Below, piece after piece: positions 3,354 through 60,491 of a stretch of DNA of 64,000 bases. A program made the position numbers and the translations under genes. Origin of the DNA: a virus; the IMG/VR virus record IMGVR_UViG_3300046504_000032, positions 3,120 through 67,119 of that record; one strand, given 5' to 3'. The notes under the pieces were generated by a model. It was given only the letters and a program-made list of their open reading frames with translations. It was not told the origin of the DNA and did not search any database. Position 1 is the first letter of the stretch, and each line of letters opens with the position of its first letter.

Positions 3354-3821
3354 ATGAAACTAATATCTTTAACGCAAGAGAAATTTGCCCAAGTCGATGA
3401 CTGGAACTATGACTGGTTAAACCAATGGAATTGGTATGCGGTCTTTAATGGATATACGTTTTATGCTGCCAGACATCCCAAAGGTGAAAATAGAAGAATA
3501 TTACTGATGCACCGAGAAATTATGAACACTCCTGATGATATGGAAGTGGACCATCAAGACCACAATGGATTAAATTGTCAGGAATATAACATGAGAAACG
3601 CTACTCATGGTCAGAATGGCGCAAATAGAACTCCATATGGTAGTTCTAAATATCTTGGAGTAAATTGCGACAAAGAATATGGATATATTAGAGCAAGTAT
3701 AAAAGTTAATGGGAAACAAAAAAACCTCGGTACTTTTAAGACAGAAGAAGCAGCTGCTAAAAAATATGATGAGGCAGCCAAGCTATATCATGGCGAATTT
3801 GCAAACTTAAACTTCAAGTGA
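3354..3821 (+). CDS. HNH homing endonuclease with C-terminal AP2 domain
   Basis: MHREIM...VDHQDHNGLNC..NMR HNH motif and SKYLGV...LGTFKTEEAAAKKYDEAA AP2 motif. Confidence 0.92.
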   Translation: MKLISLTQEKFAQVDDWNYDWLNQWNWYAVFNGYTFYAARHPKGENRRILLMHREIMNTPDDMEVDHQDHNGLNCQEYNMRNATHGQNGANRTPYGSSKYLGVNCDKEYGYIRASIKVNGKQKNLGTFKTEEAAAKKYDEAAKLYHGEFANLNFK

Positions 3822-4261
3822 TGGATTTCTACGTTATCAGAAGCAAAAAAAAATTAGACGAACTATTTGAGACATTAAAACAGCGTTCACTCCCAATGAA
3901 GATAGCTGTACAAGATGTATATCCGCTAAGATCATTGGAGGCGAATAAGTATTATTGGGGAATAATCCTATACTATATTAGCGAAGCCACAGGACATACA
4001 CCGGAAGAATGTCATGAAGGTTATCGTAAGAAGTTTAACTATACTCAGGAATTTGTTTATAATAGACGGACCAGGCAATATCAGTTTAAGATTGGTGCAG
4101 GAACTACAGTGGTTGATGAGCATAAGTTCTACCAGTTTATTTTTGCGGTGCGTGCTGATGCTGAATTAGAACTCCACATCTGTATTCCTCTGCCTAACGA
4201 GACCTTCGTTAATGAACTAAATTTTGATTTTGAACGCAAACATCAAACTAAAAGAATATGA
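3818..4261 (+). CDS. NinB-like protein
   Basis: RSLEANKYYWG...GHTPEECHE pattern. Confidence 0.6.
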   Translation: MMDFYVIRSKKKLDELFETLKQRSLPMKIAVQDVYPLRSLEANKYYWGIILYYISEATGHTPEECHEGYRKKFNYTQEFVYNRRTRQYQFKIGAGTTVVDEHKFYQFIFAVRADAELELHICIPLPNETFVNELNFDFERKHQTKRI

Positions 4262-19800: not shown

Positions 19801-22800
19801 CTTACTGGTTTCGAAGTTAGCCATGTTACTGTCATAGATCAGATAAGGAGGATTTTCCTTTTCAAGTTTCAGGTTAAGGGCAGTTGTTTTTCCTGCACCG
19901 GTACCTCCGGCTGTCATTACAACATAATTATTCTGTTCACTTGCAGGTTCACCTTGTATCAGATCATCATACAGTTTCTTTGCAAAATCAGAAGCAGGGT
20001 CATGTACTGCCTGGGAGAATTCAGTCGGGTTATTGCGATAGTCAGGTGATAGCGACTTAGCATGATCACCAGATATCACATTCCCAAACTTACTAAGATA
20101 CTCAGCTTTGTATCTTTCATAGTCATCAGTCAGGGCTTTTGCGAACCTGTCGTGGACGATCCTGTGGATTCCTGTAAATTCCTGCTTACCTTCGCCTTGA
20201 GTTCTTTCAGGAGTTCCCTCTGCGCCTGCAGTATTGAGATTCCCTTTACCTCTGCCCTCTTTTGGACCAGTTGGTTGAATTGGTTTTTCAGTTGTTCCTT
20301 TGACATTTTCTAATGATTTTTTATAGGTTGCTTCATTATTTAACCATTCATTATTGAAATATTTACCGTCAATTTCCTTCCAGAGATCCAGGTCAACGGG
20401 TTTCATCGTGTTTGCCTTATCCCATCCCCACACCTTGAACTGATCTATCGGCATCTGCTTGATCTCACCTAATCCTCTCCACTTGGGTTCAAAATTTTGA
20501 AGATATCCTGCCCTTGCATCCCAATCACTTTCAAACCCTATCATTACCTTTGGCTCGTCATACTGTCCTGTATCAGGATTGATCTGATCAATGACGTAGA
20601 TATCCTGTCCTGGTTGTATATTGCCAAGATAAACATCCAAAGGTTCACCGTCAGGGGTAATTGTTCCGAGTATATGACCGTAATCATGGTTTAATGTCAC
20701 ACTCCATTTCTTACCACTTAGATCAGTCCCGGTCCTTATCATGCCCTTGGCTGTCTCAATGGAGATATCCATTCCAAGAATAGCGATATGCCCTTTCGGA
20801 TAAATGCCTGATTCTTTCTGAGCATCAGTAGGATTAGGTTCAACATCTTCCCGGGCTTCTTCGATCTCTCCCTTTATCTCATCTGCACTTTTTAGTCCCC
20901 CCGGGACCATCCTTGGTCCTTCATGTGTCTCATGTAGCAAGCGAGAATAGACTTTAAATAATTTCAGCATTGTAGGTTGCATCTCATCTGGCGAAGATGA
21001 TTGCCCTTTATAGAAAACATTTACTGAGGCAAAGTCAGGGTCCTCATCAACTTCAAACTTCCATCCCGCTTTCTCAACTCCGGATTCGATCTTTTTCATC
21101 AGGGCGATACCTTCTTCCCTGGTTTTAGGTTCGTCAATCTCTTGTTTAATGTCCTTCCAGAATCCCTCATAGTCAATCTTCGATTCAGCTTCCTCTTTTG
21201 CCAGTCTTGACATCTTGTCGAGAGGGGATTCTTCGGATGCAGGTATAAATCTTGGGTTATTATAAGCGTTCCAATCCTCGGGTCTATGCTGTACATCGGA
21301 ATCAGATATTAGCCTGAGTTTAGCCATACCTTTTTTGTCAGGTTCAATAACTTCATATTGTATGCCTGTGAACGTATCACGTATAAGATCACCTTTTTTG
21401 AAGTCCTTTGGATTTTGTTTCTCAATAGGTTTTGATGTAGGTTTTAACTTTTCAAGTATCTCTGTTAGTTTTGTGTTTTCTCCTTGATGTTCAATACCCC
21501 TACTGTCAAGTTCTCCGATTAATCTTGCAGCATAAGAAGATGGCAATGTTTTGACGAGTGCGCCTAGTTGATCTTTATGAAGTTCAATTTCTTTCTTGAT
21601 TGTTTCCATTGAAACATTCTCAGCATTAGAAACATCATCACGATTCATCCCGGGTCTCTCTGCTAGAATAGATTCTCTTACTGTTAATTTCTTCCCTTCT
21701 CTTTTCTTCAATACTGCAGCAAGTCTTTCTTTGCCAAGAGCTGAATTATCTTTTTGTAAGGATAGTAATTCATAATCTTTATTCTTTTCAGCATTATCAA
21801 TGATCTCTTGTTTCTGTCCTGCAGGAGTTTTTACAGTAGATATTACTTCCGGCTTCTCAATATTCTGTGTTACTATCTGCTGAATCTGTTTTTGATCCAT
21901 TCCGGAAATATCCTCATCACTATACCCAAGTCGTTTAAGTTTGGGCATTAAGAACTCCATTGGATTCAAGTTAATTATTGGTCCTTCCCTCCCCCCAATA
22001 ACAGGAGTAGCGCCTTCATGAGGCGCTTTCTCCTGCCCCCTCTCAGGCTTTGGTGCCTCGGCCTGAGCTTCCATTGGTTTTATATCGGGATAATATTTTT
22101 TTACCTCATCATAGATACCGGGATATTCTTTGAGTACTTCCGGAGGGACAGGTTTACCCTCTTTGATAGCCATTGCTACAGCGCCTTTATGACCGAACCA
22201 CCAAGGACCTACAGCTTTTCCTGATTCATCCCTCGGAGCCCAGGGCGACTTATAAGTGTCCTGATGCCATCCTGCTGTTGTCTTATCCTTCCATGCCTCA
22301 TATTGCTTCCCGGTCATCTGGTAGGGTTCTAAACCTTTGGGGTTTGTCTCTTTCAGATTTTTGGCTTCTTCAGCGGCTCTTTCTTCCTGGCTTGCAGGTT
22401 GCTCTTTCTCTTTGTTTTTTTTAACTGACTTTTCTTCCGTAACTGGTTTATTTTCAACAGAGGCACCCTTTTGGTCAGGGGTGACTTTAGGGGTGACTTC
22501 TGGTGTTAATGTCTTAATCTTATCATCGAGAGACTTCTGCAGATCGGGGTCAAGTATGATCTTTATTTTCTCAAGTGTCTTGAGTGATGAGGTATGGTTT
22601 ATTGCTCCCTCTATGGTAGAACGGTCAACCTCATCTTTCCCGATGAAGTATGACGTGACCATTTCCGGGAACTTCTTCTTGTACATCTTATCAAGTTCCT
22701 CGTCACCTTCAAATCTCAATCCATACAAGTCCTGTGGTGTCTCGGCTCCGATTATTGCGCCTTTGATATATCCTTTCGATACAGGGTTCCCGTCTTTCTC

Positions 22801-24732
22801 GTATATCGGAACGTCTGACTTGCGTACTTCTTTACCGTCAACCTTGACGGTTTCCTCTACGGGTTCCTCGAATTTGGCGTTTATATCCTTGAGTTTGTCC
22901 GGGGGAATTTCTATTGCTTCACCAAATTCTCCATTATCCTTAACCTCATTCACCTTGACGGTACCATCGAATCCTATCTCCTGCACCTCCCAATTCCGGC
23001 CCATGTAGGTTATCTCGTCCCCTACTTTTGCAGTCTTATGAGCGAGATCTTCATTAGCCTGTCTCTCGAGAGGGTCAATCGGTGCGCCAGTTTTTGGGTC
23101 TTTTATCGGTTCGTCTCCTGCGAATCCGGAGATATAACCCTTCTTTGCCCTGTAAGCATCGACCCCCATATCGACAAATTCCTGCGGGGTCATTGTCTTT
23201 TCAACCTTCCAACCATTGATAAACCGGCCTTCTCTGTCTATGATACGTACAAGTTTATCATTGACTATTATTGATCCGTCAACAGGATTACGTTCAATCC
23301 TGCTGAGTAAGGCGTATGTACCGTCATCAAGTACCTTAGAACCTTTCTGAAAATATCCCTTTCCGTCAACATCGGTCATCATGTTTACCGCTACCGGCTT
23401 ACCTGTCTTGGGATGAATCTCTGCCACTCTGTTCAGAAGGGAGGTCATTGTCCTTTCGGCATTATTGGTATATATCTCCTGTTCGATAACTGGCAATGCT
23501 TCCTGATTAGATTTCCACGCATCAAGAGCTTTCTCTCTCTCTCCATTGGTCATAGTGATCTGGTCAACGATATTTTCCCGGGCAATATCCTTAAAGTTCA
23601 TCTTACTGTCCATGACAGTTATCTTGTTTGGATCAGTTGGATGGTCCCCTACCTGTTCGTAAACTTTCCCGTCTTTATCCTGAATGATCGTTATTCCTGA
23701 TTTCTTGCGTCTCATGTAGTTGTAACTCTCATTCTGTGCTGCGGTTATACTACCAAGGAATGTGCCAAGGAACGCACCGTCCCGGAAGGACTTCAATCCA
23801 TCAGCAACGACATTCATAAGAGCGATCTTATCTTCCGGGTACTTGTTTAGGTTCTGCAGCATCTCCTGTGTCATAGTCATAACACTGAATGCTCCGCCTG
23901 TCTTGACTGCGTTCTTTCCTATTTTACCTGCCAGATTGAGATATTTTTGTGTTGCCCCTGGAACGTCTGCCAGGTATCTACGAAGAATATTTGATGCTAA
24001 TTCAGGATTTTCCCTGAGTACCGTTGAGGCAGCCGACCCTATCATTGAATTGACTGCCTTACCTCCGGCTCCTGCTACCTCTCCGGCAAGGTACATGATC
24101 AGTCCCGACCCAAGTCCAACAGCCTGTTTCTGAAACTCCGGTGTCTTGTGTCCTGTTTTTTCATCATAAAGTTCTGATTCGAGTATTGAGTTACCGTATG
24201 CACTTGTAGCGAAAGCAGCCATAGTCCCCTGTCCTATGATAGCAGGTATAGCAGCGAGAGAGGTACCCCCGGTAGCTAATGATGCAGCTGCAGACGCACC
24301 CATGCCTAATATCATTGGCATCCATGCACCTACTGAAGATAAGCCACTCTCGGTATAAATCTCATTATTCTTTTTTAGGTTCTCTCTTGCTTTTTCTTTC
24401 AGCACTTCAGATGCTATCATGCCATTCATCTGCCCTGTTCCCGGGAAACTGCCAGGCATTCCTACTATTGGCAGTATTTCTGCAAGGAATGACTGCAACC
24501 CTGATCCCATCTGTAACCAACCTTTTCTTGACTGTTCCCTGAACTTACTATCCTTGCTGAACATAAAAGGCCTCTCAACCCATTCATTATGCTGTGCTGC
24601 CTGTTCTGCTGTCTGCGGGTCAAAAGTAGAAGTAGGGAGTGGTGCTCCCGCTGTTTTTTTCTTCTGTATATCCGCTAATGACGGGAATCCTTTAGGTCCT
24701 GTCTGTAGGGTTTGATCTACTGTATCTGGCAT
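7894..24732 (-). CDS. Giant polyvalent virion/ejection protein (DarB-like methyltransferase-SNF2 helicase plus accessory domains)
   Basis: 5612 aa. Approximate domains: PPase-like 20420-20830; P-loop kinase AGGTGAGKTT near 19900; DUF1249-like 18590-18830; MTase VLESAGGIG and NVPFG 16440-17560; helicase VGTGKT/VDEAH/QRNGRILRQGN 13300-15150; HEVFAH metallopeptidase near 11860; LPD38-like C-terminus. Confidence 0.9.
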   Translation of the reverse strand: MPDTVDQTLQTGPKGFPSLADIQKKKTAGAPLPTSTFDPQTAEQAAQHNEWVERPFMFSKDSKFREQSRKGWLQMGSGLQSFLAEILPIVGMPGSFPGTGQMNGMIASEVLKEKARENLKKNNEIYTESGLSSVGAWMPMILGMGASAAASLATGGTSLAAIPAIIGQGTMAAFATSAYGNSILESELYDEKTGHKTPEFQKQAVGLGSGLIMYLAGEVAGAGGKAVNSMIGSAASTVLRENPELASNILRRYLADVPGATQKYLNLAGKIGKNAVKTGGAFSVMTMTQEMLQNLNKYPEDKIALMNVVADGLKSFRDGAFLGTFLGSITAAQNESYNYMRRKKSGITIIQDKDGKVYEQVGDHPTDPNKITVMDSKMNFKDIARENIVDQITMTNGEREKALDAWKSNQEALPVIEQEIYTNNAERTMTSLLNRVAEIHPKTGKPVAVNMMTDVDGKGYFQKGSKVLDDGTYALLSRIERNPVDGSIIVNDKLVRIIDREGRFINGWKVEKTMTPQEFVDMGVDAYRAKKGYISGFAGDEPIKDPKTGAPIDPLERQANEDLAHKTAKVGDEITYMGRNWEVQEIGFDGTVKVNEVKDNGEFGEAIEIPPDKLKDINAKFEEPVEETVKVDGKEVRKSDVPIYEKDGNPVSKGYIKGAIIGAETPQDLYGLRFEGDEELDKMYKKKFPEMVTSYFIGKDEVDRSTIEGAINHTSSLKTLEKIKIILDPDLQKSLDDKIKTLTPEVTPKVTPDQKGASVENKPVTEEKSVKKNKEKEQPASQEERAAEEAKNLKETNPKGLEPYQMTGKQYEAWKDKTTAGWHQDTYKSPWAPRDESGKAVGPWWFGHKGAVAMAIKEGKPVPPEVLKEYPGIYDEVKKYYPDIKPMEAQAEAPKPERGQEKAPHEGATPVIGGREGPIINLNPMEFLMPKLKRLGYSDEDISGMDQKQIQQIVTQNIEKPEVISTVKTPAGQKQEIIDNAEKNKDYELLSLQKDNSALGKERLAAVLKKREGKKLTVRESILAERPGMNRDDVSNAENVSMETIKKEIELHKDQLGALVKTLPSSYAARLIGELDSRGIEHQGENTKLTEILEKLKPTSKPIEKQNPKDFKKGDLIRDTFTGIQYEVIEPDKKGMAKLRLISDSDVQHRPEDWNAYNNPRFIPASEESPLDKMSRLAKEEAESKIDYEGFWKDIKQEIDEPKTREEGIALMKKIESGVEKAGWKFEVDEDPDFASVNVFYKGQSSSPDEMQPTMLKLFKVYSRLLHETHEGPRMVPGGLKSADEIKGEIEEAREDVEPNPTDAQKESGIYPKGHIAILGMDISIETAKGMIRTGTDLSGKKWSVTLNHDYGHILGTITPDGEPLDVYLGNIQPGQDIYVIDQINPDTGQYDEPKVMIGFESDWDARAGYLQNFEPKWRGLGEIKQMPIDQFKVWGWDKANTMKPVDLDLWKEIDGKYFNNEWLNNEATYKKSLENVKGTTEKPIQPTGPKEGRGKGNLNTAGAEGTPERTQGEGKQEFTGIHRIVHDRFAKALTDDYERYKAEYLSKFGNVISGDHAKSLSPDYRNNPTEFSQAVHDPASDFAKKLYDDLIQGEPASEQNNYVVMTAGGTGAGKTTALNLKLEKENPPYLIYDSNMANFETSKGRIEKALENGKEVDILYVWRDPFTAYIEGVIPRMKEERRSIGIDTHVKTSANSLANIRKIYDLYKDNDNVTFTFYDNDIQNEVQPESVFSHIPIDEADLKRRLQDEIKSLQQQGELTETEKSVLLEETRTGDELSLQQSAETGREQTQEINGGEKTAPAESVGSAEQQPSPKPEFAGESIEYRPKDGWETNLIKARDYASHLIDHSEINQLIKDNKLDWTNTESIVAAIKQKLGLKLVNDLFEGKPVLTPEQKELQKFKDAMPYTHFGQSVLLAHKQILKAIPILKSIKVGDYFKSGKRGDAIMPFVIEAQTLGSYHMLFPDPKAYRLIMEHNYIQEGDLMTDPRIDIAVYPSLDIIVPLNFEQSNPPIYQEFIAEGKVIDQKGMNDTLSFMKTWMNNLKNQGRTITESNRIKEETENGTESKSITSIENQASAIINQAENVADREQAGQISEEIDRQIAEIDSQLQLLGEYKIPEEYYRTHEYPHRGLEPIIKKDVTKFSKEIAKLLGWEHDTDRKGKKIEYSNVNLAPAGGDAHFILWKPGTDLGVYVSIPFNPTNEFAGDYSELWKIEGHGQGYGPILWRLTTKAKKYSGMNNQWIQADVTAGELARTIKKFADSYEKSTDKRNFDNINITHEKATTPLRDKGIRDTPGEGTPPMVGGVGPSETGGPVSSEQTPTLPELNGGQSGGEHTEINRSRETAQPGRGGDNTGLLSTDEGRGSSGVVERTQRTDTGNRTQPENLADRNFVITDEAFVPKGEFAKIRANISAIELVQKLEKENRNATPEEKDILAKYTGWGGLATVLDQGKWAEPRWHEEWHKKYGGYHKKLLSLLTPDEFNNAVNSTINAHYTSIPIIRQMWNLAEQLGFRGGNVLESAGGIGHFFGAMPGYLQDNSILKAYELDSITGRIMTKLYPQARVNVKGYELSNEPIASQDLIITNVPFGKTSPFDAKNQDISKFYLHNYFIAKGIRQLKPGGIGVFITSNSSLDSPASAKFREWVVTEGNADFVGAIRLPNNAFAENAGTEVTTDIVIFRKRIGDIISPNAKDFRITVPIGDAETKDGLPVKIEVNQYFAENPDNMLGKMMLAHEAGGGGLYSADRQTLAPIRGKDLITELATRIATMPKSIMETAENKPPEELIAANDEERNGTIVNRGGKIYEVVNGDLALTEWNDKTIKVKGKSYKTNKIADDYLKIKSLANDLITMEQSPDADPKVLETVRANLNKEYDGFFKSYGKINNNKALEFLEDDSEHNAVAALENVSHTSELDKNGRNIRKEFIDKSDIFTKRVNFPVIEPTTAGNVEDALNISISYRNAVDIPYMASILGMTEEQATQELLEEGLVFRNPATEQIEDKDTYLSGFVRTKYNTALEASKDNPLYLKNVEALKSVVPKDIPGQLVKFSLGTPWIPGDMVKQFVKDHLDVNATIEYSNATGHWIVRGHDGQYGAKNKTAGTEEFSGLELVEKSLNLRTPRVVRTSYDYVDGRRVKTEKVDIEATAQAQGKMDDIMDTFVNYVYDKPEYVEQIETVYNAKYNDFIEKNYNAPSFDHFPGASKDIKLYGIQRVGVMRSLKESTLLAMQVGTGKTFTMITTAMEMRRLKLAKKPMIVVQNSTLEQFSNSFRELYPAAKILVPPPLNKMKAEKRQLIFNKIAYGDWDSIIIPQSFLDFIPDDPARERAYIQERIAELQQVLDEVDDGSWNNPIASDLKKSIEALNEQMFKMDNPTKKKTKKVKDIARSNLSKETQLEKQAFRRKDDVRLFEKMGVDALFVDEAHAYKKLGFATALQNIKGIDTKGSKRAFGLYMKVKFVQEKMNGRNVILSTGTPISNTMAEVWTMMKYIAPEILKKHNINTFDQFASTFGSIEPSLEFTAAGKFKVVKRFKSYKNAPELMRLFRANSYVVLTEDVPEFKEAKTIPKLKDGKHTQIIIPQSEGVKTAMEKFKNILEAWEQLPGKEKRLQRHVPLVIFGRAKQAAIDLRLINSANYDDPGSKTNEVVKQVKRIYDETTSYKGTQLVFSDIFQSPDLGSTVPRFNLYEDIRDKLMKLGVPATEIVIIKDQSGGQREAIYDRVNKGEVRIVLGSTGKLGTGVNVQDLLKAIHHIDAPIRPMDFEQRNGRILRQGNQHADMGLPVEVVTYGVEKTLDATAFQRLDIKMKFINQMMKGDKLDREANDAADEEDATDMTFAQMMATLSGSQYAILHTQKMYELKKLQTGRRNYERGMIDAKKGLQNARTIVGYLTDALMDVKNATELIRKYFKPLEGKGEGTTSGLNIKSITFNGKQYQGEKLLEGFNLELTKMIDLFKAGVGENKTSILKINDIPVPIFLSYDGRNDRFVYQVEPVQSSSAEAKITGYCTSGAGFFQSLKIQFNNFLDGKLKDVEKRLAQHQNDIPTFENTLTKKFAQQEKLDNTEREVRDLEEKMKEETENGMNKNPKPIVTPTRDQKIAWLREQVSNPEHGEKTREILTDYIKQYDEAPLEATKDLILEEIASKSRMIKEKFDEIDASKDNLLDEDIEDSPEPSPSYMRRPKEPDLNDENMRPIWDNAQFPKYQATPGTFAGEEVAVMREHEMMRRAQIMSEYTGVPIIIVRTKQELPKHLVKDAIKRFGDLRKSEIPSVYDRANKKVYLVVEDNKSVSDLVSNMSHEVFAHYGLEALLGVEPYLRVLQLTYTGMSPVDVVELANRYNVPESDWKTVAEEYIGYIAGNGQINPNLWQRIIAYIRNLIRKILNISMSKSEIMALLKKAKDNLTNNKPEVTDYANIGDYLDALTAYSTRTGKAEGGFGYGIHASESRAIEEAIGKGNQDYRTYFGVAESQIGTKATGWIEKALANNDFDSNKALDYLESKMTKYQNFERHYRIVKDARNYLFDNEPKNPTAMYKVLVGKGKAPDELNFLSWDKPIDYDQQENIVNQLDAENKFDITVSGAFHSGEALYNKITDLYGSDREASLFLSRAGIDGMKKDQSMVIYDNTPVDVLNQIAYMRRPKSTFVGEHLANAGKVYTNQAETKRNWQETVNGIREYIQDNNLPVRKFEEEIIKRGGLQPNDAKPYRDISLSFGRQETLYKDFMKTKMKPIQESVAKIIKGGMSGENILPYIISKHAIERNMVFRAREIDEFIMKNPDATDQDIAELKEEIADKDYSGVMAFDVNDEFTNPDELAQTISDEFEEQVSKPLIDELWSNIHNASSAILDIWEAGQQLSPEQKQMYLEQFKYFVPLRGWREGAAKDLVYVKGEGFKKSLMHATGRKSLADNPLAYMQSVAFSAIGEQVDNEVKTSMLRLLMRNLQSADLYDLATVKKLYYIRVDLPDGTHEWEPTLDRPSQELFDSGEAVTKIYNEYQKLRVPKQAREHEVIVRRQGGDVVMIFKGKMLSVAQAMNKRNFMYHNIFSKVKDARTLNQAVTGLSYMNNFLKAAYTSWNIVFPFTNFLRDVQEASMTQLIRGDAGQKIVVNYHRAFPSIIRFLRDKLDMNNPDDVKLRDFYLTGGATGFTHLLSAEDLEKDLMDEINRMVGRGTVRGDIKHFMHESVQIISMWNQVFEDATRFSVYLTSIDLGKTKEEAASDAKEASVNFNRKGKSSKLYDSIYAFWNVAWQSLQKNFKLGKDYPKRFAAVASAFMALGFLEALLNHATDDQDPENDYYNINPYMRENYLVLPNLPRLISGESKGNKYLSIPLPQFWRGFKSIGSLAYDLTQGKTTVKEAITKAMLNFGSAMSPVDIGGFSKTGEFSLAPIVPTIIKPFYEIATNRNYMGYTIAREPFDKAQKKLLANSGLGKSNVNPAAKFFTDMLFRWGGGENATKYYIDKTGEEKKVPGFLDINPSFIEHLFKGYTGGSGAVFSDLITTISQALKPDQEVDFKNIPFVNKFLRETPESKWNIISDYYNLKDVVGVHKGLKRAYQQQAEAGGSTTGIEATEGSNYYQQYQDIVDSYDKDIKEISDQVDFTDVEGTKPIYDLMQQCIVDIKALKEQYKMK
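17574..17897 (-). CDS. Nested +1-frame gene inside the giant ORF (TnpV-like helical protein)
   Basis: 107-aa globular-looking ORF with its own TAACTTTG box (17923-17916) and AT-rich start. The host frame here is low-complexity linker. Confidence 0.65.
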   Translation of the reverse strand: MKKPQHLLEIKGFETPLARVHLQWLEEWDLPKLVDLYRQNKLQHYLNSMVDKAEANIQKLIAAGRQRNQAEEATIPDFLAPMRDEDPPEWSRELKGQIPEIERSLKT

Positions 24733-24739
24733 AGCATGG

Positions 24740-26059
24740 TTATTTAACTGCAGTAGAATCCTTTTGTGCTTTAATCATTTGCCTCCATTCCCTCATAATA
24801 TTATTGGCATAATCATCAGCATCTTTTGACGGTACTGTTCTTCCTATAGCTTTGTACCGGTCAATATATAAGGATTTTATCTGTTTCAGTTTTTTACCAT
24901 CTTCGATATTCCACTGTAGAATTGTCTGAGCATCTATCGTCACTTGCTCTTTTGATGCATCATCAAGATCAGTAACTCCGTCCGGTCCTTTGACTGCTGT
25001 TGGTTTTACTGGTCCTGTTGGTTGTGCAGGTTGGACTGTTTGACCTGTTTTTTGTCCGTATATGCCTTCATATACACCTGCAGGGAGCAGGTTATCTCTG
25101 ATGTAGTCCCAATTATCGGCAATAGCTTTACCCAAAGCCTCCGGCTGTGAGGTTTTGTTATTGGCGATATCTCTGAACACTTTCGCTAAGGTCTGGTCGT
25201 ATGGACTTTTCCCTATTGAGAGCTGTTGTACGATATGGGTTACTAACCCAGGACTGATATAGATTGTTTGTTTGGTATCCGGGGTGACGAATTGCAATGT
25301 CTCTTTATCCCCGGCTTTCGGAGGAGTGAATACGTCAATCTCCGGTTTTGCTCCACCAGGTAGCAGTCCTATACCCCTGTCAAACTTGGCCTTCTCCCTG
25401 GCTATCCCTACCTGTAGTTGTGCTTCTATTGCAGCCTGTACCTGTTTGCGTACTCCTTCTGCCTCGTTTTCCATCCCTCTAAGCCGGTATTGTTTCTCAA
25501 GCAGGGCGTTCTCCCTGATGAAGTTATCAAGTTCTTTCTCTGCAGCCAATGATTCCTGGTGAGATCTCTCGGCCTGTTTCTCTGCTTTATCTACTGCTGC
25601 TGCATCCTGAGCCATGCCATACTGCACGTCTGCCTGTTTAAGAGCCATTTTCTTTGTACTAATTCCTTCAAGTTTCTGTTTGTATTCTAGATCGCTTTTG
25701 GCATATTCATTGACAGCATTCATGATAAATGGGTTTGGAGCCCTTTGTCCTACGGGAGCTCCGCCACCTGCAGCAATACCTTCCCCGAGAAGTCTGAATG
25801 CTTCCCCGAGAGAGTTGGTGCGCATGATCTTCTGTTGTGTAGCCTGACTGGTCTCTTTCTCGGCTTTGGCTTTTGCTTCCTCATCTTTCCAATCGAAGAT
25901 AGCGGAATAAGGACCCGTCATATCGTTAGGTCCGGCTGCCTTAGCTGCCTTGATACGTTTGCGCACAGCTTCACTCCTGGCAAATTCATCGGCATAGTTT
26001 GTTCCTTTGATGACAGGGATGGGTGGATCCGAAGAAAAGTCTAATCTTGCCATATTCAA
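24740..26059 (-). CDS. Probable DNA ejection (internal virion) protein
   Basis: Helical and Ala/Gln-rich with a glycine-rich segment, directly upstream of the giant gene. Confidence 0.6.
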   Translation of the reverse strand: MNMARLDFSSDPPIPVIKGTNYADEFARSEAVRKRIKAAKAAGPNDMTGPYSAIFDWKDEEAKAKAEKETSQATQQKIMRTNSLGEAFRLLGEGIAAGGGAPVGQRAPNPFIMNAVNEYAKSDLEYKQKLEGISTKKMALKQADVQYGMAQDAAAVDKAEKQAERSHQESLAAEKELDNFIRENALLEKQYRLRGMENEAEGVRKQVQAAIEAQLQVGIAREKAKFDRGIGLLPGGAKPEIDVFTPPKAGDKETLQFVTPDTKQTIYISPGLVTHIVQQLSIGKSPYDQTLAKVFRDIANNKTSQPEALGKAIADNWDYIRDNLLPAGVYEGIYGQKTGQTVQPAQPTGPVKPTAVKGPDGVTDLDDASKEQVTIDAQTILQWNIEDGKKLKQIKSLYIDRYKAIGRTVPSKDADDYANNIMREWRQMIKAQKDSTAVK

Positions 26060-26700
26060 TCTCCTTTCAGGTGTTCTTTCTGCATATTAAGTAATCCGAT
26101 TATCCTGGGGATCTGTTCTTCTACCATGTGTCTTTGTTCTTTAGACATTACATTGGTATACTTAAAATTAACTCCGACAAAACCATCCTCTTTCCCGTCA
26201 AATTGCCGCATCAGGAAAAGATAACAAGACTTAAATTTCCATAACTCCATATCTCTTTTAAAGTTGAGATCTGGGCAATCGTTCACATCAGCCACGCAAT
26301 AATCATATAACGTAGCTAACTGCGCAAACGCCTGTGAATATCTGGAATTAAGGACTGCTACGCACTTATCCATCATAGGTAAATCTGTTCCTCCTGCAGT
26401 CTCATGGGTAAGAGTGAATTTCTTCATTGGTAGTCCGTTAACATAATTACCTCCGTTATGGAATCTGCCAATGACTATCTTAGTAGACTTCAATTCAAAT
26501 TTTAACTTGCATATGATCTTCTGTACAATAGTGCTATAACAACTGTCTTCTTTTACAGAATATTGATTTGCGTCATTTGCAATTTTGACTGCGGCTGGTT
26601 TGACTAACTTATAAAATTTGAGCCATCCCAAAGTCAATACGCCGATTAGGAGCAGTGTTATCACATCTATTGGGGTTCTTGAGTTAAATAAACCTGTCAT
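26056..26700 (-). CDS. Single-TM protein with GAF-like domain, putative T4 T-like holin
   Basis: N-terminal TM helix, then RFHNGG...KFTLTHE...GFVGVNF GAF-like pattern. Confidence 0.55.
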   Translation of the reverse strand: MTGLFNSRTPIDVITLLLIGVLTLGWLKFYKLVKPAAVKIANDANQYSVKEDSCYSTIVQKIICKLKFELKSTKIVIGRFHNGGNYVNGLPMKKFTLTHETAGGTDLPMMDKCVAVLNSRYSQAFAQLATLYDYCVADVNDCPDLNFKRDMELWKFKSCYLFLMRQFDGKEDGFVGVNFKYTNVMSKEQRHMVEEQIPRIIGLLNMQKEHLKGD

Positions 26701-27163
26701 TTCTTTATCTTTTTTACACCAATTCTTACATTGTCAATTATCTTTCTGGCAGAAGTGGAGTCCAGAAGAAACTCATTTCGTTCTTTTTTTTTTCACTTAC
26801 TTCAAAGATGCGTTGTACTTCCTGTAATTCTTCTTTTGTCGGAACTTTTCTCTCCATATAATCTTGCATATTTGAATTAATTATAGAAAGTCTTCTTACT
26901 CCTCTGTTTATGGTACGCAAACTATCACTGAAATTTTTAAAGTTATTGATCATTACACTTCTGAACGCTTTACCTTCCGCATGTTCTATTGAATCATACT
27001 TTATCCATGTGTCAATCCTTACCACTTGGTTTGTACTCTTGGTCCTTTTCTGTTCTGCCTTTACACCCTGGGTATATATCAGGATGACGATACTGGCTAT
27101 TGCGGTTGCTCCACCGAATACTCCTCCGATCCACTTAGCAAGATTTAAGACTTTTTCTGACAT
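26697..27163 (-). CDS. Membrane-anchored coiled-coil protein with short (stop 26738) and -1 frameshifted (stop 26697) forms
   Basis: N-terminal TM and an A10 run containing A_AAA_AAG. The -1 frame ends RIGVKKIKK and overlaps the next ATG. Confidence 0.7.
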
Positions 27164-27757
27164 TTACCTGAATGTTACTGCTGTATTACCCGAGTTTTGG
27201 AATGTTGCACCTGGTTTGTTCTTGAATAGTCCTTTGAGCCATTCATCTCCTTTGTTGAATGCTCCGTAAGAATCTGCCATAGAGAATGCGCCTGCGGCTC
27301 CCATTGCGTTACTGCCTGCATTCATTAAGTTAGCGGATTTTTGCATGGACTGGTTATAGTCAAGTCCGAAAAGGCTGTTTTCAGAAGCAAGATGTTCCCG
27401 TCTTAGGGCATCCTGACGTTCCTGACCGTAACCTGCAAGGTTTGTTATTGCTCCCACGAAAGGTCTCTGCATGGATTCTGCCTGGGCTACTGCTTTCTCG
27501 TCTGATGCTCCGGTTATCACGTTGCTTTGTGCAACTTTACGGGCATTACGAATATATTCCTGTGATAGTTGGCTGAGTGCCGACTTTGCCATCGGGGTAT
27601 TGAGGAAGTCAAGGTTAGAATCGTATTTATACTCAAGATCGAGTTCATTTTTCCTCGCTGTAAGTTTGCGCTGTGCCTCTTGTGCTGCCTGTCTGGCTTT
27701 GATACTGGCTACCATGCCAGTTGCCATAGAATAAATCGCCAATGCGGTGCCTATCAT
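27164..27757 (-). CDS. Probable small DNA ejection protein
   Basis: Hydrophobic Gly/Ala N-terminus followed by Ala/Gln helices; first gene of the ejection-portal operon. Confidence 0.6.
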   Translation of the reverse strand: MIGTALAIYSMATGMVASIKARQAAQEAQRKLTARKNELDLEYKYDSNLDFLNTPMAKSALSQLSQEYIRNARKVAQSNVITGASDEKAVAQAESMQRPFVGAITNLAGYGQERQDALRREHLASENSLFGLDYNQSMQKSANLMNAGSNAMGAAGAFSMADSYGAFNKGDEWLKGLFKNKPGATFQNSGNTAVTFR

Positions 27758-27810
27758 GATAAAAATAATTTAATCACCGTAAACTTAGGAATATTACTTG
27801 GTCTGTAAAG

Positions 27811-54674: not shown

Positions 54675-56489
54675 TTAGTTTCTTTTTGAAAACCCATTTC
54701 CTATCTTCCCAAAACCACCATTCTTACTTTTGAGAAAATGCGTCCCTGTTGCCACTACCTGGTTGCTTATAGTTATCACCTGGTCATCATACACGCCTGA
54801 TCCGTCCTGTGCCGTTGCCCTCACTGTTACCGTTCCGTCTGTTAATGCTGTAAGAAGTCCACCTGAGCTTATCGAAGCTGTACCACTTCCATTAACTCTG
54901 CTCCATGTTACTGTCTGTATATCCGCATCAATTGGTAATATTGAGGCAAGCATCTGAAGTGTACCGTTGTCAACAGATATTGTAGTTGCACCTCCTGTAC
55001 CTGAGACTGTAATACTTGTAACTAATATCTCATCGCCTGCTGAATATTCAAAAGCCCCAAGATCAGGAGCAGAACCAGAATAACCTGTTAATACATTATC
55101 AACATAAATGGTAGCCGTCCCCGCATCTATTAAATCTGAATTTGCATTAAGATGACCAAAAGTAATGTCCGGCAATGATCCATCTGCCTTTCTCGGCCAT
55201 CTTAACTGAGCTGTATCCAGACTAACAAAATCAGCATCTGTTACAGTATAAGCAGGATTAGGGTCAGTATACCAATAATTACCAAGTCCTCTTTGTACCC
55301 ATGTATTATGATCCTGTAGTACATAAGTAGGATAATCAAAATTACATGACTTAAATACTGCCTGGTAGGTATCCCTTTGAGCGTATACTACATTGTTGCG
55401 AACAATATAAAGTGCCGGATCAATCCCACATCGATAATCTCCTCCGACATCTAATAAACCATTCCAGTCCTTATATGAAAAACAGTTATAAACTTCGTCA
55501 TATATACCATAACCAAAATCGTAAAGATTGGCGTGTTGAGGACCTGTACCAGTGCCCAGTCCGTATATGCCTCCGTATGCAGAAACAATATTGTGAATTT
55601 TTCTTTTACTGACAGAATATAAATGACTCTGTTCAAGTTTTAAAGCATTCCCGTCACCTTCAATCCTACCATTTGCCCACATCCAGCAGTCGTGCATATC
55701 TATTTGTTTTGTACTTCCGAAATCAATGGCATCGTCTGAGTTAAACCATGATCGACATCCTGAGATATAAGCTATCTTAAATGTATCGGCAACACTTCCC
55801 CCGCTTGTTATATTATATCCATCAGCCCTTCCGCCAACATGCCCCCCCGGAACTCCTATTCCCCAGTCATCTATGTTATTATAACTATCACAATTCACAA
55901 GATGAAGAGTATCATATGCTGAAATCCAAAAACCATTGCCTCCATTACCGGTCGAAGTCATGTTCTCAAGAGATACAACACCCCACGGGCCAATAGCTGG
56001 CCAGACGACACTAAATCCAGCAATCCATTGACCCTCTGTCGTCTGTTTGCAATTCCTTTGTGTTAATCCCTTAAATTTTAAATGTGTAGATTTATAAACA
56101 TCCACAGCCGATGTACTTGAACTGCTCGCAGGAAAGTTAATAGCATCTATAATTGGATAATTGCCACTGGCATAATCAGGAGGATAAGCAAAGAAACAAA
56201 TTGGATGACTAAAAGTTCCATCATGTCCATAAGTCCCGGCTAAATGATGAGCGGGAACTGTAATGTACCAAACTCCACCCCTGAAATATACTGTATCTCC
56301 AGCATCGGCTGTGTTAAATGCTTTCTGCCATGTAGCCCACGGCAAAGTAATTGAAGTTCCTGCGTTTGCATCTGATGCAGTAGAACCATACGTCGCATTA
56401 TAAGCAGGGTCTTGACAATAATAAACATGGTATTGTGCATTGACAGTAATACCAATAAACAGAAATAATATTAACAGTAACTTCCTCAT
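54675..56489 (-). CDS. Signal-peptide-bearing beta-helix polysaccharide lyase-like protein with Ig (Big_2) domain
   Basis: MRKLLLILFLFIGITVNAQ, AGDTVYFRGG, ADG/NSDDA/GDGNALKL PL9-like motifs, IDAG...APDLGAFE, C-terminal Ig domain. Confidence 0.8.
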   Translation of the reverse strand: MRKLLLILFLFIGITVNAQYHVYYCQDPAYNATYGSTASDANAGTSITLPWATWQKAFNTADAGDTVYFRGGVWYITVPAHHLAGTYGHDGTFSHPICFFAYPPDYASGNYPIIDAINFPASSSSTSAVDVYKSTHLKFKGLTQRNCKQTTEGQWIAGFSVVWPAIGPWGVVSLENMTSTGNGGNGFWISAYDTLHLVNCDSYNNIDDWGIGVPGGHVGGRADGYNITSGGSVADTFKIAYISGCRSWFNSDDAIDFGSTKQIDMHDCWMWANGRIEGDGNALKLEQSHLYSVSKRKIHNIVSAYGGIYGLGTGTGPQHANLYDFGYGIYDEVYNCFSYKDWNGLLDVGGDYRCGIDPALYIVRNNVVYAQRDTYQAVFKSCNFDYPTYVLQDHNTWVQRGLGNYWYTDPNPAYTVTDADFVSLDTAQLRWPRKADGSLPDITFGHLNANSDLIDAGTATIYVDNVLTGYSGSAPDLGAFEYSAGDEILVTSITVSGTGGATTISVDNGTLQMLASILPIDADIQTVTWSRVNGSGTASISSGGLLTALTDGTVTVRATAQDGSGVYDDQVITISNQVVATGTHFLKSKNGGFGKIGNGFSKRN

Positions 56490-58444
56490 TAATATACAGT
56501 ATATTTTGAGTTAAGATAATTCACTACCAATGTTTGATCCGAACCACTATCAATCTTAGTCCTGACCCACACTTCTTTTACTGATATATAAGCACCATTC
56601 GTTGCATTATCATCACCTATGACAAATTTAGCATATGTGCTTGTAGCAAGAGTACCAACTACCGCACTATTAGCATTTAGTTGTATTTTGGAACCATTTA
56701 GCGCATCTTCATTATATATTATCCTTAAAATATAATAAGTATCATCATTATAAAAAGATGCTCCAGTTGCAAAGGTTTCACCACCACCAATTATTGTTAA
56801 GGCAGTAGGTTCGGTTGCAGATTGTCTAAAACTATTAGAACCTAATTTAAATAAGTAGTCACTTGCAGTATAACCATGAACACTTATTACAGCATAAATC
56901 ATTGATGGCTGAGCATAAGAAAATGGGTCTGCTATCAAATAATCATCTGTGCCATCAAAATCCACCTCACCATTTACTGCGTCCCATGTTGGACGGGAAG
57001 TGAGAGTGCCTATTGCATGGTTATCATTCCCAGATATATCATTCCATTGATTTATAAGACTTCCTGTCAAGCTGAAATTATCGGCATCGGCAATAAGTGC
57101 TTCTTTTGTATAAGTATCGGATAATAAGAATGAAGGTGCAGAAACAGATGGAACAGGCATATTATTTGTCACCGCCTTATTAACCCAGTTAACAACCTTA
57201 TTTCTTGATGAGTCCTGTAACTTTTTACCTCCAGATACATTAGCTAATGTTGCAGTGTAATCAAGCAGATAAGTTGAGCCATAATTACCTACGCTGTCCA
57301 TTACTATATAAAGACTGTCATGTCCTATCAAACTCTTATTAATCCCGTAAGTATTGCCATCTTCAGTAATATGGAATGCTCCTTTATTTGGTATTGAATC
57401 CTGCCTTACATCAGTTGTGTCGAACATAACCAGAACAGTATCATCTGCAAAGGTTCCAAGTTCGGCACTGAGAAATACAGGAGCCTCAAAATCATGTCCT
57501 GCCCCTAAATAAGCAAGTATATTTGTTAATGTCCCCCGAAGATTAGTATTACTGTCCTTTAGACTATCTATCACCTGATAGAGATATGTGGTATCGTAAG
57601 AACCACCTCCATAATCATGCAGTTGTTTATAAGTAACATAATTCCCCTGACTTTGTTTTACTGAATCTGCGAGCGAAATACCTGTTGTTGCATTGGAGAG
57701 ATAAACATCCATAGAATCATTAATATTCTGATGTGTGGCATATCTTGTATTGGATTGTGTTTTTGTATATCTGGCAAGTAAACTATCTGCAAGTACAGTT
57801 ATAGTTGATTGTGCCTGATTATGTGCTGTTGGTGTCCGGGCATCAGAGAGTCTTGCATCGTTACCGGCTGTGAAATTCGTAGCTCCAGTGCCAAATGACC
57901 CCGTAGTTAATACTCCAGATGTAGTGGTAATTAAAGGAAGATTCGCTGTTGATCCTATTGCCCCGGCACTTGTTATATTTCCGTGTGCATGACTGGTATT
58001 AGCCTTTAAGTCTATGCGGGCAGATAAATGAGTTGTATCAGTCGATCCGCCGCCGCCGCCACCAACAGACCTCGCATAAGCTTTTGTAGCGACCGTATCA
58101 GTTGTACTTACTTTCTGCACACCAAGAAACACTGGGTTAAGCAGTCTCGCATATCGCTGAAGCATTGCTGTCGTATCTGTTTTAGACAACTTCAATCCAA
58201 TATTTGTAGTATTGGCATTGGTCTGAAGGATCGTACGGTTTGTCTTAGACATTGCACTACGTAGACTTTCACCTGTCCCAGAATTAGCACTTGTACCTAT
58301 GTTGATTGTATCAAGCTGATCGCCTATGTTCCTTGAGTGGGATCTTTTGACAATAGAACCACCATCAGTCTGTGACGTATAATAATATTTCGAACACCCT
58401 GCCAACAGGATCAGACTTGAGAATAAGATTAATAGCTTTTTCAT
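56489..58444 (-). CDS. Tail-fibre-like protein with lipoprotein signal and C-terminal lectin-like domain
   Basis: MKKLLILFSSLILLAGC lipobox; INIGTSANSGTGESLRSA, HAHGNIT and GNDARLSDARTPTAH fibre motifs; W.DISGN.NHA and FDGTDDYL ConA-like motifs. Confidence 0.7.
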   Translation of the reverse strand: MKKLLILFSSLILLAGCSKYYYTSQTDGGSIVKRSHSRNIGDQLDTINIGTSANSGTGESLRSAMSKTNRTILQTNANTTNIGLKLSKTDTTAMLQRYARLLNPVFLGVQKVSTTDTVATKAYARSVGGGGGGSTDTTHLSARIDLKANTSHAHGNITSAGAIGSTANLPLITTTSGVLTTGSFGTGATNFTAGNDARLSDARTPTAHNQAQSTITVLADSLLARYTKTQSNTRYATHQNINDSMDVYLSNATTGISLADSVKQSQGNYVTYKQLHDYGGGSYDTTYLYQVIDSLKDSNTNLRGTLTNILAYLGAGHDFEAPVFLSAELGTFADDTVLVMFDTTDVRQDSIPNKGAFHITEDGNTYGINKSLIGHDSLYIVMDSVGNYGSTYLLDYTATLANVSGGKKLQDSSRNKVVNWVNKAVTNNMPVPSVSAPSFLLSDTYTKEALIADADNFSLTGSLINQWNDISGNDNHAIGTLTSRPTWDAVNGEVDFDGTDDYLIADPFSYAQPSMIYAVISVHGYTASDYLFKLGSNSFRQSATEPTALTIIGGGETFATGASFYNDDTYYILRIIYNEDALNGSKIQLNANSAVVGTLATSTYAKFVIGDDNATNGAYISVKEVWVRTKIDSGSDQTLVVNYLNSKYTVY

Positions 58445-58875
58445 ATAATATAAAGTTTAAAATTCGAAGGTAAGTATTTATTTAAGTTCTGTAATGCAAT
58501 GTCAGGATGAACAATATCTATCGTTCCATTACCATCAATATCCATCCAGTCAGTCCCCGGTATCTGACAACCAAGAGTATCTTTCAAAAAGTTCCCGATA
58601 TGAATCATTATACCTTCCCTTCCTGGAACATCTTTAATCCAGAATACATTGGGATGCCCTTTATAAGAATATTTGATAACATCATAAACGCCAGAAGGTA
58701 TACAGGAAATATTATGTTCGTTATTCAACCAGGGAAGCTCCATACAGAAACACCGATATAATTCTGTAACACCGTCCATAACAAGATAAAGTCCCTGGGT
58801 TGAATCAATTTTATATTTCCGTATCAGAATAAGTTTTGGCATCTTATATTTTATAATCATTTCTGAACATTTCAT
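58441..58875 (-). CDS. DUF5675-like (L,D-transpeptidase-like) protein
   Basis: ELPW...SCIPSG.Y, DVPGR.GI.IH.GN...DT.GC. Confidence 0.85.
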   Translation of the reverse strand: MKCSEMIIKYKMPKLILIRKYKIDSTQGLYLVMDGVTELYRCFCMELPWLNNEHNISCIPSGVYDVIKYSYKGHPNVFWIKDVPGREGIMIHIGNFLKDTLGCQIPGTDWMDIDGNGTIDIVHPDIALQNLNKYLPSNFKLYII

Positions 58876-58885
58876 TTCTTAACTC

Positions 58886-59299
58886 TTATCGAATCAAACT
58901 ATGTAGACCTAAAGCTATAAGTACACCAATTATTGCGGCTATAAGCACACGAATAATAGTGCTGGGCCATCCGGCATATATCTCAAGGACTCTTAATCTT
59001 AAATCCTGTGTATCCTGTCTTTGTTCAAGCAATTTAAGCCTCTCTTTTATACATATCACATCGTTTCGTATCTCAGTAATGAGCTTATTCTGCTTTTCAA
59101 GAGATAAGAACATGCGTTCATTCTGTTGTTGGATGACCTCTGCGAGGGCTTTGGTGAGTTCCACTATGTTCTTATCAAAGGCTTTATTCCAATCCTCATT
59201 ATGTGCATCGAGAGACCTCTTTATGAATGCCCTGTCATCAATATTTAAAGACATCCCCTTGAGCGTCTTATCAGATACGGGAACTATTTTTTTCGCCAT
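58886..59299 (-). CDS. Coiled-coil protein with C-terminal TM
   Basis: Heptad region followed by a hydrophobic tail. Confidence 0.75.
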   Translation of the reverse strand: MAKKIVPVSDKTLKGMSLNIDDRAFIKRSLDAHNEDWNKAFDKNIVELTKALAEVIQQQNERMFLSLEKQNKLITEIRNDVICIKERLKLLEQRQDTQDLRLRVLEIYAGWPSTIIRVLIAAIIGVLIALGLHSLIR

Positions 59300-59397
59300 T
59301 GTTTTATTATATATAAGATAAATTTCAAAGTGTAGAATACCATTGTCAATGCCACAAATAATCCAAATCCAATTATGATATAAAGTCCTGCATTCAT
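59284..59397 (-). CDS. Small single-TM protein (37 aa)
   Basis: MNAGLYIIIGFGLFVALTMVFYTLKFILYIIKQWRKK; its ATG overlaps the -1 frame stop of the upstream gene. Confidence 0.6.
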   Translation of the reverse strand: MNAGLYIIIGFGLFVALTMVFYTLKFILYIIKQWRKK

Positions 59398-59824
59398 TTT
59401 ATCTTCTTAACTCCTATTTTCAAACTATCAAATGTTATCTTGGTATGTAAGGAATCATTAGCGAACTTGGCTCGTTGTTTTTTTTTAACTCATAATTCTC
59501 CATTTTCAGTCCTTCAAAGTATTTCATAAAGCTGTCTGTCTTGGTAAGATTATCCCTCCAATAAAGAATTACCGATTTCTGCAAAGCATTATGAGCGGCA
59601 GCATAGTTATCGACCTTTCTGTTATACCTCATTTGCCTTACCGCAATGGAGTCCAATTTAGTATCCATATTCTTTACGATAATCTTTAGATCGCCTGTTT
59701 CATTGGCTATATCTTCCTGTTTCCCCACCCAAGATGAAACCGCCCAAGCAGTACCTCCCACAAAAGCTATAGCCGATACAATACCCATAAAATAACCAAT
59801 ATATTTCATTAATGTTTTAAACAT
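59394..59824 (-). CDS. Membrane-anchored coiled-coil protein with short (stop 59435) and -1 frameshifted (stop 59394) forms
   Basis: N-terminal TM and an A9 run; the -1 frame ends KIGVKKIK. Confidence 0.7.
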
Positions 59825-60472
59825 TTACGCTACCTTAAGTCCTCTAAAATTATTCTTATTTCCCTTATTCCATGGAGTCGCTCCCTCTCTGCTTGGGGGT
59901 TTTATTCCATGCTGTATATTATATTCTCTTTGTTTCTGTTTAGTTTTTTCAGATGATCTCTGCCCTTTATTCCAAGCAGGTTGACCTAAGTGTTTTTCTC
60001 TATTTTTCCTTATAGATTCCAGTGAAGCCTTTTTGCCTTTTCTCCCAGAAGGTTTCCCCTTTCTGCTCATTTTAGCCAATGCCTCTTTAGAATAATTTCT
60101 ATGCTTACCCTTAAACGGAGATGCTATTCCTATATGAGATTTCCTGTTTTTTTCTACTATTTCTTTTGATCGTTTTATTCCTATATTACTATTGGCTATT
60201 AATCTTATATTAAACCAAGGATTTAACAAATCAATAAAATATTGTTCATTATTTATTATACTACTCTTTTCACATTCTAACAAAATCAAAAATGACAAAT
60301 CATCTATACCGTATTTATCATAATGTCGTTGAAGTTTAATTGAATGATGATTTCCTTTCTTTAATGAACTCAAATGACAGCGCCATCTTTGCGTAATATT
60401 TATAGCACTCCCAATATAACACCTATCGGGTTTTGTCTTAGATTGTATTTTATAAATTCCACTTATTTTCAT
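59825..60472 (-). CDS. GIY-YIG homing endonuclease with NUMOD3-type repeats
   Basis: SGIYKI...YIGSA...RW..H, EQYFID, PWNKG repeats; ATG 60472 preferred. Confidence 0.92.
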   Translation of the reverse strand: MKISGIYKIQSKTKPDRCYIGSAINITQRWRCHLSSLKKGNHHSIKLQRHYDKYGIDDLSFLILLECEKSSIINNEQYFIDLLNPWFNIRLIANSNIGIKRSKEIVEKNRKSHIGIASPFKGKHRNYSKEALAKMSRKGKPSGRKGKKASLESIRKNREKHLGQPAWNKGQRSSEKTKQKQREYNIQHGIKPPSREGATPWNKGNKNNFRGLKVA

Positions 60473-60491
60473 AATATAAAGATACAAAAAA

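Follow-up and report, generated by a model that had tools for sequence, protein, structure and literature searches.

A conserved A run in the 3'-terminal part of a phage membrane-protein gene as a candidate recoding site

In this paper we analyse a 64,000-nucleotide (nt) stretch of viral DNA, bases 3120-67119 of the IMG/VR virus record IMGVR_UViG_3300046504_000032 (67,119 bases, rated 100% complete), and a gene family that is present in it in two copies. We call the whole stretch the window; the record sequence is carried by peat-metagenome runs, and every gene of the finding lies on the minus strand. Towards its 3' end each copy of the gene contains nine or ten consecutive A's, and we propose that this conserved A9-A10 run is a recoding site. 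Judged from the sequence comparisons described below, this would be the best single explanation of the data, and we give it an even chance of being right. The shifting itself, its mechanism, its rate and its coupling to the downstream gene are what we infer from these comparisons. The gene family is rare and phage-borne, and to our knowledge few conserved recoding sites are known in double-stranded DNA phages beyond the tail-chaperone shift.

The A runs and the open -1 frame

Copy 1 is an open reading frame (ORF) of 141 amino acids (26738..27163) with an N-terminal hydrophobic segment recognised by eye, a long helix and a disordered end that begins at an EKKKN motif. Around the run its frame 0 reads ...GAA GTA AGT GAA AAA AAA AAG AAC GAA ATG..., and the proposed slippage site is the A10 run at 26784..26793 (T10 on the plus strand), where GAA AAA AAA AAG holds A_AAA_AAG in the zero-frame phase. 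The frame-0 stop codon is at 26738-26740. The -1 tail (26697..26783) has 28 codons plus TGA, no ATG, GTG or TTG of its own, and the -1 frame reads ERNEFLLDSTSARKIIDNVRIGVKKIKK up to this stop. The TGA (26697-26699) overlaps the ATG (26698-26700) of the next gene, forming ATGA at 26697..26700. This downstream gene (26056..26700) encodes 214 amino acids with an N-terminal membrane segment and a GAF-like domain, the latter as a lead only. An earlier note on this DNA had described the A10 run with its in-phase heptamer, the end of frame 0 at 26738 and the ATGA overlap, and we see all three.

The same note had claimed that the design recurs in a second copy with a homologous tail. Copy 2, an ORF of 129 amino acids (59435..59824), indeed has an A9 run (59478..59486; TTA AAA AAA AAC, with A_AAA_AAC in phase), an open -1 tail of 27 codons plus TGA (59394..59477) that is homologous to the tail of copy 1, and an ATGA where the tail stop overlaps the ATG of a 37-amino-acid ORF with a single membrane segment (59284..59397). 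Its tail reads KQRAKFANDSLHTKITFDSLKIGVKKIK before the stop, and the -1 frame can also be written (K)QRAKFANDSLHTKITFDSLKIGVKKIK. A BLASTP comparison of the two bodies gives an 18-residue match only. A family hidden Markov model (HMM) built without copy 2 scores it at 20.5 bits (E 2e-8 with Z=1, a single-sequence search space), and we therefore treat copy 2 as a divergent family member.

A third locus with DNA, L003, was found on a different metagenome contig. Its family protein is 81% identical to the database protein P0007, and it has an A10 run whose 5' edge carries a -1-frame TGA. Past the run, LQFRLGTSDTAKHEYNIRHEIIKK is encoded in the -1 frame up to a TGA, which overlaps the start codon (ATG) of a 36-amino-acid membrane ORF. 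All three loci thus have a -1-frame TGA directly 5' of the run, and past the run a -1 frame that stays open for 24-28 codons until the ATGA at a membrane-protein ORF, as had been noted for the window copies. The +1 frame contains stops in all three. The copy 2 tail has no ATG or GTG and a single TTG, nine codons from its end. In the two window copies, given the TGA before the run and the lack of ATG and GTG in the tail, the -1 frame could be entered only within the run. The missing start codon also rules out the tail as an independent small gene.

The -1 tails of the two window copies are identical at 12 of 27 positions without gaps, with a Smith-Waterman score of 57 against 18.1±3.8 for shuffled sequences (0 of 5000 shuffles reach 57), and by this comparison they are clearly homologous. 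Different codons are used for 8 of the 12 identical residues. When an equal number of substitutions is placed at random, as many residues are kept with p 0.019 for the whole tail and p 0.034 for the part beyond the frame-0 stop. Support for -1 coding comes from the region past the frame-0 stop of copies 1 and 2, together with the recurrent open frame and its ATGA.

The protein family and its lysine pair

An exhaustive phmmer search of 1.84 billion representative proteins gave 24 proteins at E<=0.001, the query itself among them. One of the matches, the 513-residue repeat protein P0021, was judged spurious. P0036 and P0037 came from a profile search, and word-index protein searches added little to the family. 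In an alignment of 25 sequences (A2) the mean column identity is 25% and no columns are invariant except those of two adjacent lysines, which are followed by Asn in at least 90% of the sequences.

We tabulated the motif in 28 sequences, namely 25 database proteins, the two window copies and L003. The pattern [E/V/Q/L/I]-K-K-[N/S] is found in 27 of them, 7-27 residues before the frame-0 stop, and with every motif combination in these 27 a stretch of nine or more A's in a row can be encoded. Only P0027 departs from this; it lacks the motif and ends in ...IKIEKIKK. Where DNA is available, all-A codons are used each time: GAA AAA AAA AAG in copy 1 (A10), TTA AAA AAA AAC in copy 2 (A9) and GAA AAA AAA AAT in L003 (A10). 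From the codon usage of the window (AAA for 58% of Lys, GAA for 59% of Glu and TTA for 21% of Leu), the joint chance of all-A codons at the three loci is about 0.0026, a value that assumes independent loci and similar codon usage in L003. At other [ELQVI]KK[NKS] sites in window genes, AAA AAA is used in one of six. At this level the slippery site may be conserved beyond the needs of the protein (27 of 28 proteins by motif, all three DNAs by run), and 27 of 28 proteins stop in frame 0 soon after KK[N/S].

The stretch after the motif appears to evolve quickly. In one 90% cluster (P0011 and P0029-P0032) near-identical proteins have frame-0 tails that differ after EKKNSGLS, ending in ...SLRIQSIPDISSTQ in one form and in ...LIQYNLNKR in the other. 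These differences look like small insertions or deletions.

Searches at the DNA level found few relatives. L003 was the single locus found in the metagenome contig scan, and neither the viral nor the genome contig scans found a relative. A match in a viral contig (L001) lies inside an 804-amino-acid ORF and is due to chance, as are seven viral-contig loci that fit a degenerate IGVKKIK(K)-ATGA pattern and have neither the run nor the design. In blastn and tblastn searches of GenBank phages there was no match for the two loci or for four family proteins.

Alternative explanations and the origin of the shift

The strongest alternative is that no recoding takes place. The frame-0 protein would then be the sole product, K-K-N would be a motif of the protein, and both the open -1 frame and the similarity of the 35-37 nt that separate the frame-0 stop from the next ATG would stem from an A-rich initiation region or a nucleotide-level element, for example a joint between modules. 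We consider this a real possibility, if a doubtful one. Several observations speak for it or weigh against recoding, beginning with the fact that the DNA-level evidence comes from three family members.

Firstly, the frame-0 tails are themselves conserved. The earlier note had called them dissimilar in the two copies, which does not hold: they score 24 against 13.3±3.0 for shuffles (p 0.006), and a hydrophobic-x-[T/I]-P motif occurs family-wide in frame-0 tails, those of both window copies included. This conservation argues that the unshifted frame-0 product is functional. Between the two copies, the placement test gives a null result for the part of the -1 tail that is overlapped by frame 0 (p 0.27).

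Secondly, a 151-nt unitig from another peat sample (X3) matches 26697-26751 only, with 4 differences in 55 nt (93% identity) between divergent flanks. This identity is higher than the level of saturated synonymous sites. In its upstream flank 5 of 14 bases differ from copy 1, and in a reading by hand frame 0 counts three synonymous changes (W T P L to R T P L) where the -1 frame has none, which suggests that the main constraint on the overlapped stretch acts on frame 0. Downstream, also by hand, the unitig continues through ATGA into a hydrophobic start, MISAILAFIWF. No other piece is as conserved between the related phages as 26697-26751, which could serve in regulation or join two modules. 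An element that acts at the nucleotide level, or a joint left by recombination, would account for this stretch as well as coding does.

Thirdly, the L003 -1 tail shows no similarity to the two window tails (p 0.13 and 0.79). The sequence of the -1 tail is thus not conserved family-wide, and the IGVKKIK tail, which had been put forward as a feature to look for among homologues, does not characterise the family. Leaders in the window are 44% A and 12% G, and a Shine-Dalgarno (SD)-like 4-mer occurs in 9 of 52 of them against 21% of control positions over the whole window, so that there is no SD enrichment. With such leaders, a lysine-rich reading just 5' of an ATG is partly expected. Another window ORF has an in-frame A9. 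Finally, the RNA downstream of the run does not fold better than shuffled sequences at any of the three loci (minimum-free-energy z +0.61, -0.02 and +1.34; the test covers minimum-free-energy structures, without pseudoknots), and by eye no SD-like element upstream of the run is common to the three.

An account without recoding leaves four observations unexplained. These are the invariant pair of lysines with run-extending flanks in a family of such low identity, the all-A codons at every locus (p about 0.003), the different codons for most of the conserved tail residues, and a -1 frame that each time ends on ATGA.

Another possibility is phase variation at the DNA level. The length of the run would change during replication, and a subpopulation of phage genomes, with A11 (copy 1) or A10 (copy 2), would have the long form as an uninterrupted reading frame, so that the switch would be a genetic one and would not arise in expression. 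Homopolymers 9-10 bases long mutate readily, and with this design either frame is tolerated. Yet the three loci with DNA and all 27 motif-bearing predicted proteins are in the short frame-0 state, and the run length is the same in contigs of two samples, a weak check, as contigs drop rare variants. We regard phase variation as improbable.

The authenticity of the runs was checked at the level of contigs and unitigs, in which rare length variants are lost. Homopolymers of at least nine bases occur three times in the window: the A10 of copy 1, the A9 of copy 2 and an A9 at 3845-3853 (plus strand). The last is in frame, nine codons into an ORF with a GTG start (3818..4261); translation of that ORF may instead begin with an ATG at 3896, in which case the A9 would lie in the leader. 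For copy 1, a Logan contig of run X1 (40,064 nt, depth about 12), which may be the source sample, has no differences and no gaps against 26000-27800. From another sample of another study (X2), a 171-nt unitig spans 26647-26817 with no gaps and one substitution outside the run, reaching just 24 nt past the run, under our 31-nt bridging rule. The A10 is thus genuine as far as contigs show, and the in-frame A9 and the intact 16.8-kb ORF, which had been cited against a general homopolymer error, were both seen. A sequencing or assembly error, with true genes of A11 and A10 and the tail in frame, would be mended at both sites by one extra A and is judged here on contigs, but we hold it very unlikely, above all in view of the family, where 27 of 28 proteins, taken from many sources, have their frame-0 stop soon after KK[N/S] and the L003 contig shows the same out-of-frame A10, and also in view of the separate Logan assembly, the gap-free second unitig and the intact 16.8-kb ORF.

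We return to recoding at the run as the reading that we prefer. The slippery X_XXY_YYZ heptamer is in the zero-frame phase in each case, as A_AAA_AAG (copy 1), A_AAA_AAC (copy 2) and A_AAA_AAT (L003). The comparison with dnaX made in the earlier note thus stands for the heptamer of copy 1 and not for a dnaX-like stimulator, of which neither fold nor SD-like element was found; a stimulated ribosomal shift in the style of dnaX is therefore not supported. The review PMC5009743 describes A_AAA_AAG as the shiftiest heptamer in Escherichia coli and runs of nine A or T as sites of efficient RNA-polymerase slippage in bacteria in vivo. Since one added A gives the -1 reading, we favour transcriptional slippage.

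We suggest that the majority of molecules would yield the frame-0 protein, a membrane-anchored long helix with a short disordered tail that carries hydrophobic-x-[T/I]-P. A minority would switch into the -1 frame inside the run. The likeliest cause would be the addition of one A by RNA polymerase on the tract of 9-10 A's, with a possible share for ribosomes that slip by -1 or slide, unstimulated, on A_AAA_AAN. Shifted ribosomes would make a second isoform with a basic extension of 24-28 residues and would end on a UGA which shares bases with the start codon (AUG) of the membrane-protein gene that follows. The frame-0 stop lies 37, 35 and 8 nt upstream of the next start in copy 1, copy 2 and L003, respectively. 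In a host without SD use, termination at ATGA would favour reinitiation at the next gene; SD-free, A-rich leaders presumably point to a host of Bacteroidota type. Such termination-reinitiation coupling is plausible by analogy with phage MS2. A further step would be that the A run acts as a meter, with the small membrane protein translated mainly by slipped ribosomes that end on ATGA. The proteins so metered would be a holin-like one at 59 kb and the one with a transmembrane (TM) segment and GAF-like domain at 26 kb. We think this metering rather unlikely.

Encoded proteins, comparable systems and significance

For the 141-residue protein, an AlphaFold2 model built on alignment A2 predicts helices at 2-106 and 110-120 and disorder from the KKN motif on, with a mean predicted local distance difference test (pLDDT) of 77, about 53 from residue 121, and a predicted template modelling score (pTM) of 0.37. 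Foldseek found no match for the long-helix model in the PDB at E<=0.001. The protein has no Pfam match and no informative PHROG match, and its ESM Atlas matches are unnamed viral clusters, all below 0.9. In the model and by eye, it shares the N-terminal membrane segment and long helix of an Rz-type i-spanin. We rejected this identity, as a lipobox scan of all frames in the three cassettes gave no o-spanin partner; its only matches were a 651-amino-acid lipoprotein (56489..58444) and one chance ORF of 27 amino acids.

The 214-residue downstream protein had been called a GAF-type holin. Its part as a holin is putative, while a GAF-like fold is a good lead from the ESM Atlas, where viral 'GAF/phytochrome' clusters match it with a score of 0.98 and TM 0.8-0.9, and phrog_14038 matches at 2.5e-5. 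Pfam, for its part, gives no match. By its ESM Atlas matches, the protein with its TM segment and GAF-like domain is a member of a widespread viral family. SpoIISA, a membrane GAF toxin, may serve as an analogy. A relative in the crAss-like phage cr127_1 (L013 2053-2986) is 23% identical (E 9e-4). There it comes after a 116-amino-acid protein with several membrane segments, whose in-frame end is ...IKGVKNKTSKYNKNGDK. The gene of this protein extends 14 nt into the start of the relative, without a long A run. Directly downstream of the copy 1 operon lies an ORF of 5612 amino acids (7894-24732, minus strand), in which P-loop, methyltransferase-like and helicase-like stretches can be seen by eye, in the style of polyvalent proteins.

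At 59 kb the 37-residue membrane ORF is followed by a coiled-coil protein of 137 amino acids with a C-terminal membrane segment (58886..59299) and by a DUF5675 protein (58441..58875; Pfam PF18925, 1e-18), which ends a presumed lysis-type cassette. The gene order in L003 is similar: family gene, membrane ORF of 36-37 amino acids, coiled-coil protein with membrane segment and a further gene. BLASTP between the two gives a weak match for the coiled-coil proteins (E 0.018) and none for the small membrane ORFs or the last genes. We therefore do not regard the two as one shared cassette, and the likeness is architectural only. After the DUF5675 gene comes the 651-amino-acid predicted lipoprotein (minus strand; lipobox LLAGC), with a weak LPAM_1 match of 19.1 bits, just below the Pfam cut-off of 20, and then a pectate-lyase-like beta-helix protein. 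Directly upstream of copy 2 is a GIY-YIG/NUMOD3 homing-endonuclease gene (59825-60487, minus strand; Pfam 5.5e-8, phrog_314 4e-19), which could bear on the copying of the paralogous junction.

Our literature listings contained no description of the family, nor of a frameshift beside a TM-GAF or holin gene, and we compare the sites with better known systems. The lysis gene of MS2 depends for its activation on a frameshift in the coat gene and on termination beside the L start, a place that only shifted ribosomes reach and from which they can reinitiate. Here, too, an out-of-frame stop adjoins the start of a membrane gene (ATGA in all three loci and, by hand, in X3). MS2 is a single-stranded RNA phage without a dedicated slippery run, whereas we see a conserved A run in a double-stranded DNA phage, with a putative coupling. 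In the tail assembly chaperone G/GT of lambda-type phages, two isoforms arise because ribosomes shift by -1 at a conserved place towards the 3' end of the gene. That is a soluble chaperone with a long extension, encoded between tail genes, while the present protein is predicted to be membrane-anchored and stands beside small membrane proteins. The neighbours here are membrane proteins, the DUF5675 protein, the GIY-YIG endonuclease and the 5612-amino-acid ORF, and not major tail or tape-measure genes, and we agree with the earlier note that this is not the tail-chaperone frameshift.

The -1 ribosomal frameshift in dnaX of E. coli is stimulated by an upstream SD-like element and a downstream hairpin. 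Copy 1 has the same A_AAA_AAG in phase, copy 2 and L003 have A_AAA_AAC/T, and unlike in E. coli neither stimulator is found. The E. coli shift shortens its product, whereas the shift proposed here would lengthen it. Closer in mechanism may be dnaX of Thermus thermophilus, for which PMC5009743 reports transcriptional slippage on a run of nine A or T, naming Shigella mxiE alongside. Common to Thermus dnaX and our case are a run within the coding region (9-10 A's here), extra A's in the messenger RNA that would alter the C-terminus, and no need for RNA structure. The present case differs in that it concerns a phage membrane-anchored helical protein and its shifted frame ends exactly on the next start. 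Ribosome sliding on iterated AAA lysine codons is described in Koutmou 2015 (PMC4363877) as a loss of output that is not programmed. That case and ours have in common that lysines are encoded by a homopolymeric stretch of A's, and unlike there the run here is conserved and the alternative frame is open to a defined end.

If the recoding proves not to be real, our results will caution against taking A-rich leaders and runs of lysines for recoding signals, which they can resemble. If it is real, the type of recoding would be already known and the case new: a family-wide site in membrane proteins of lysis-type cassettes, in uncultured soil phages whose hosts apparently do without SD sequences. 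For annotation, the rule would be not to label these genes as broken and to add the second isoform. It would also provide a case of slippage-metered translational coupling that is open to testing. Should the A run act as a meter, the slippage frequency on 9-10 A's would set the dose and the timing of a membrane-active protein, a double-stranded DNA phage counterpart of MS2 lysis-gene activation across a whole gene family.

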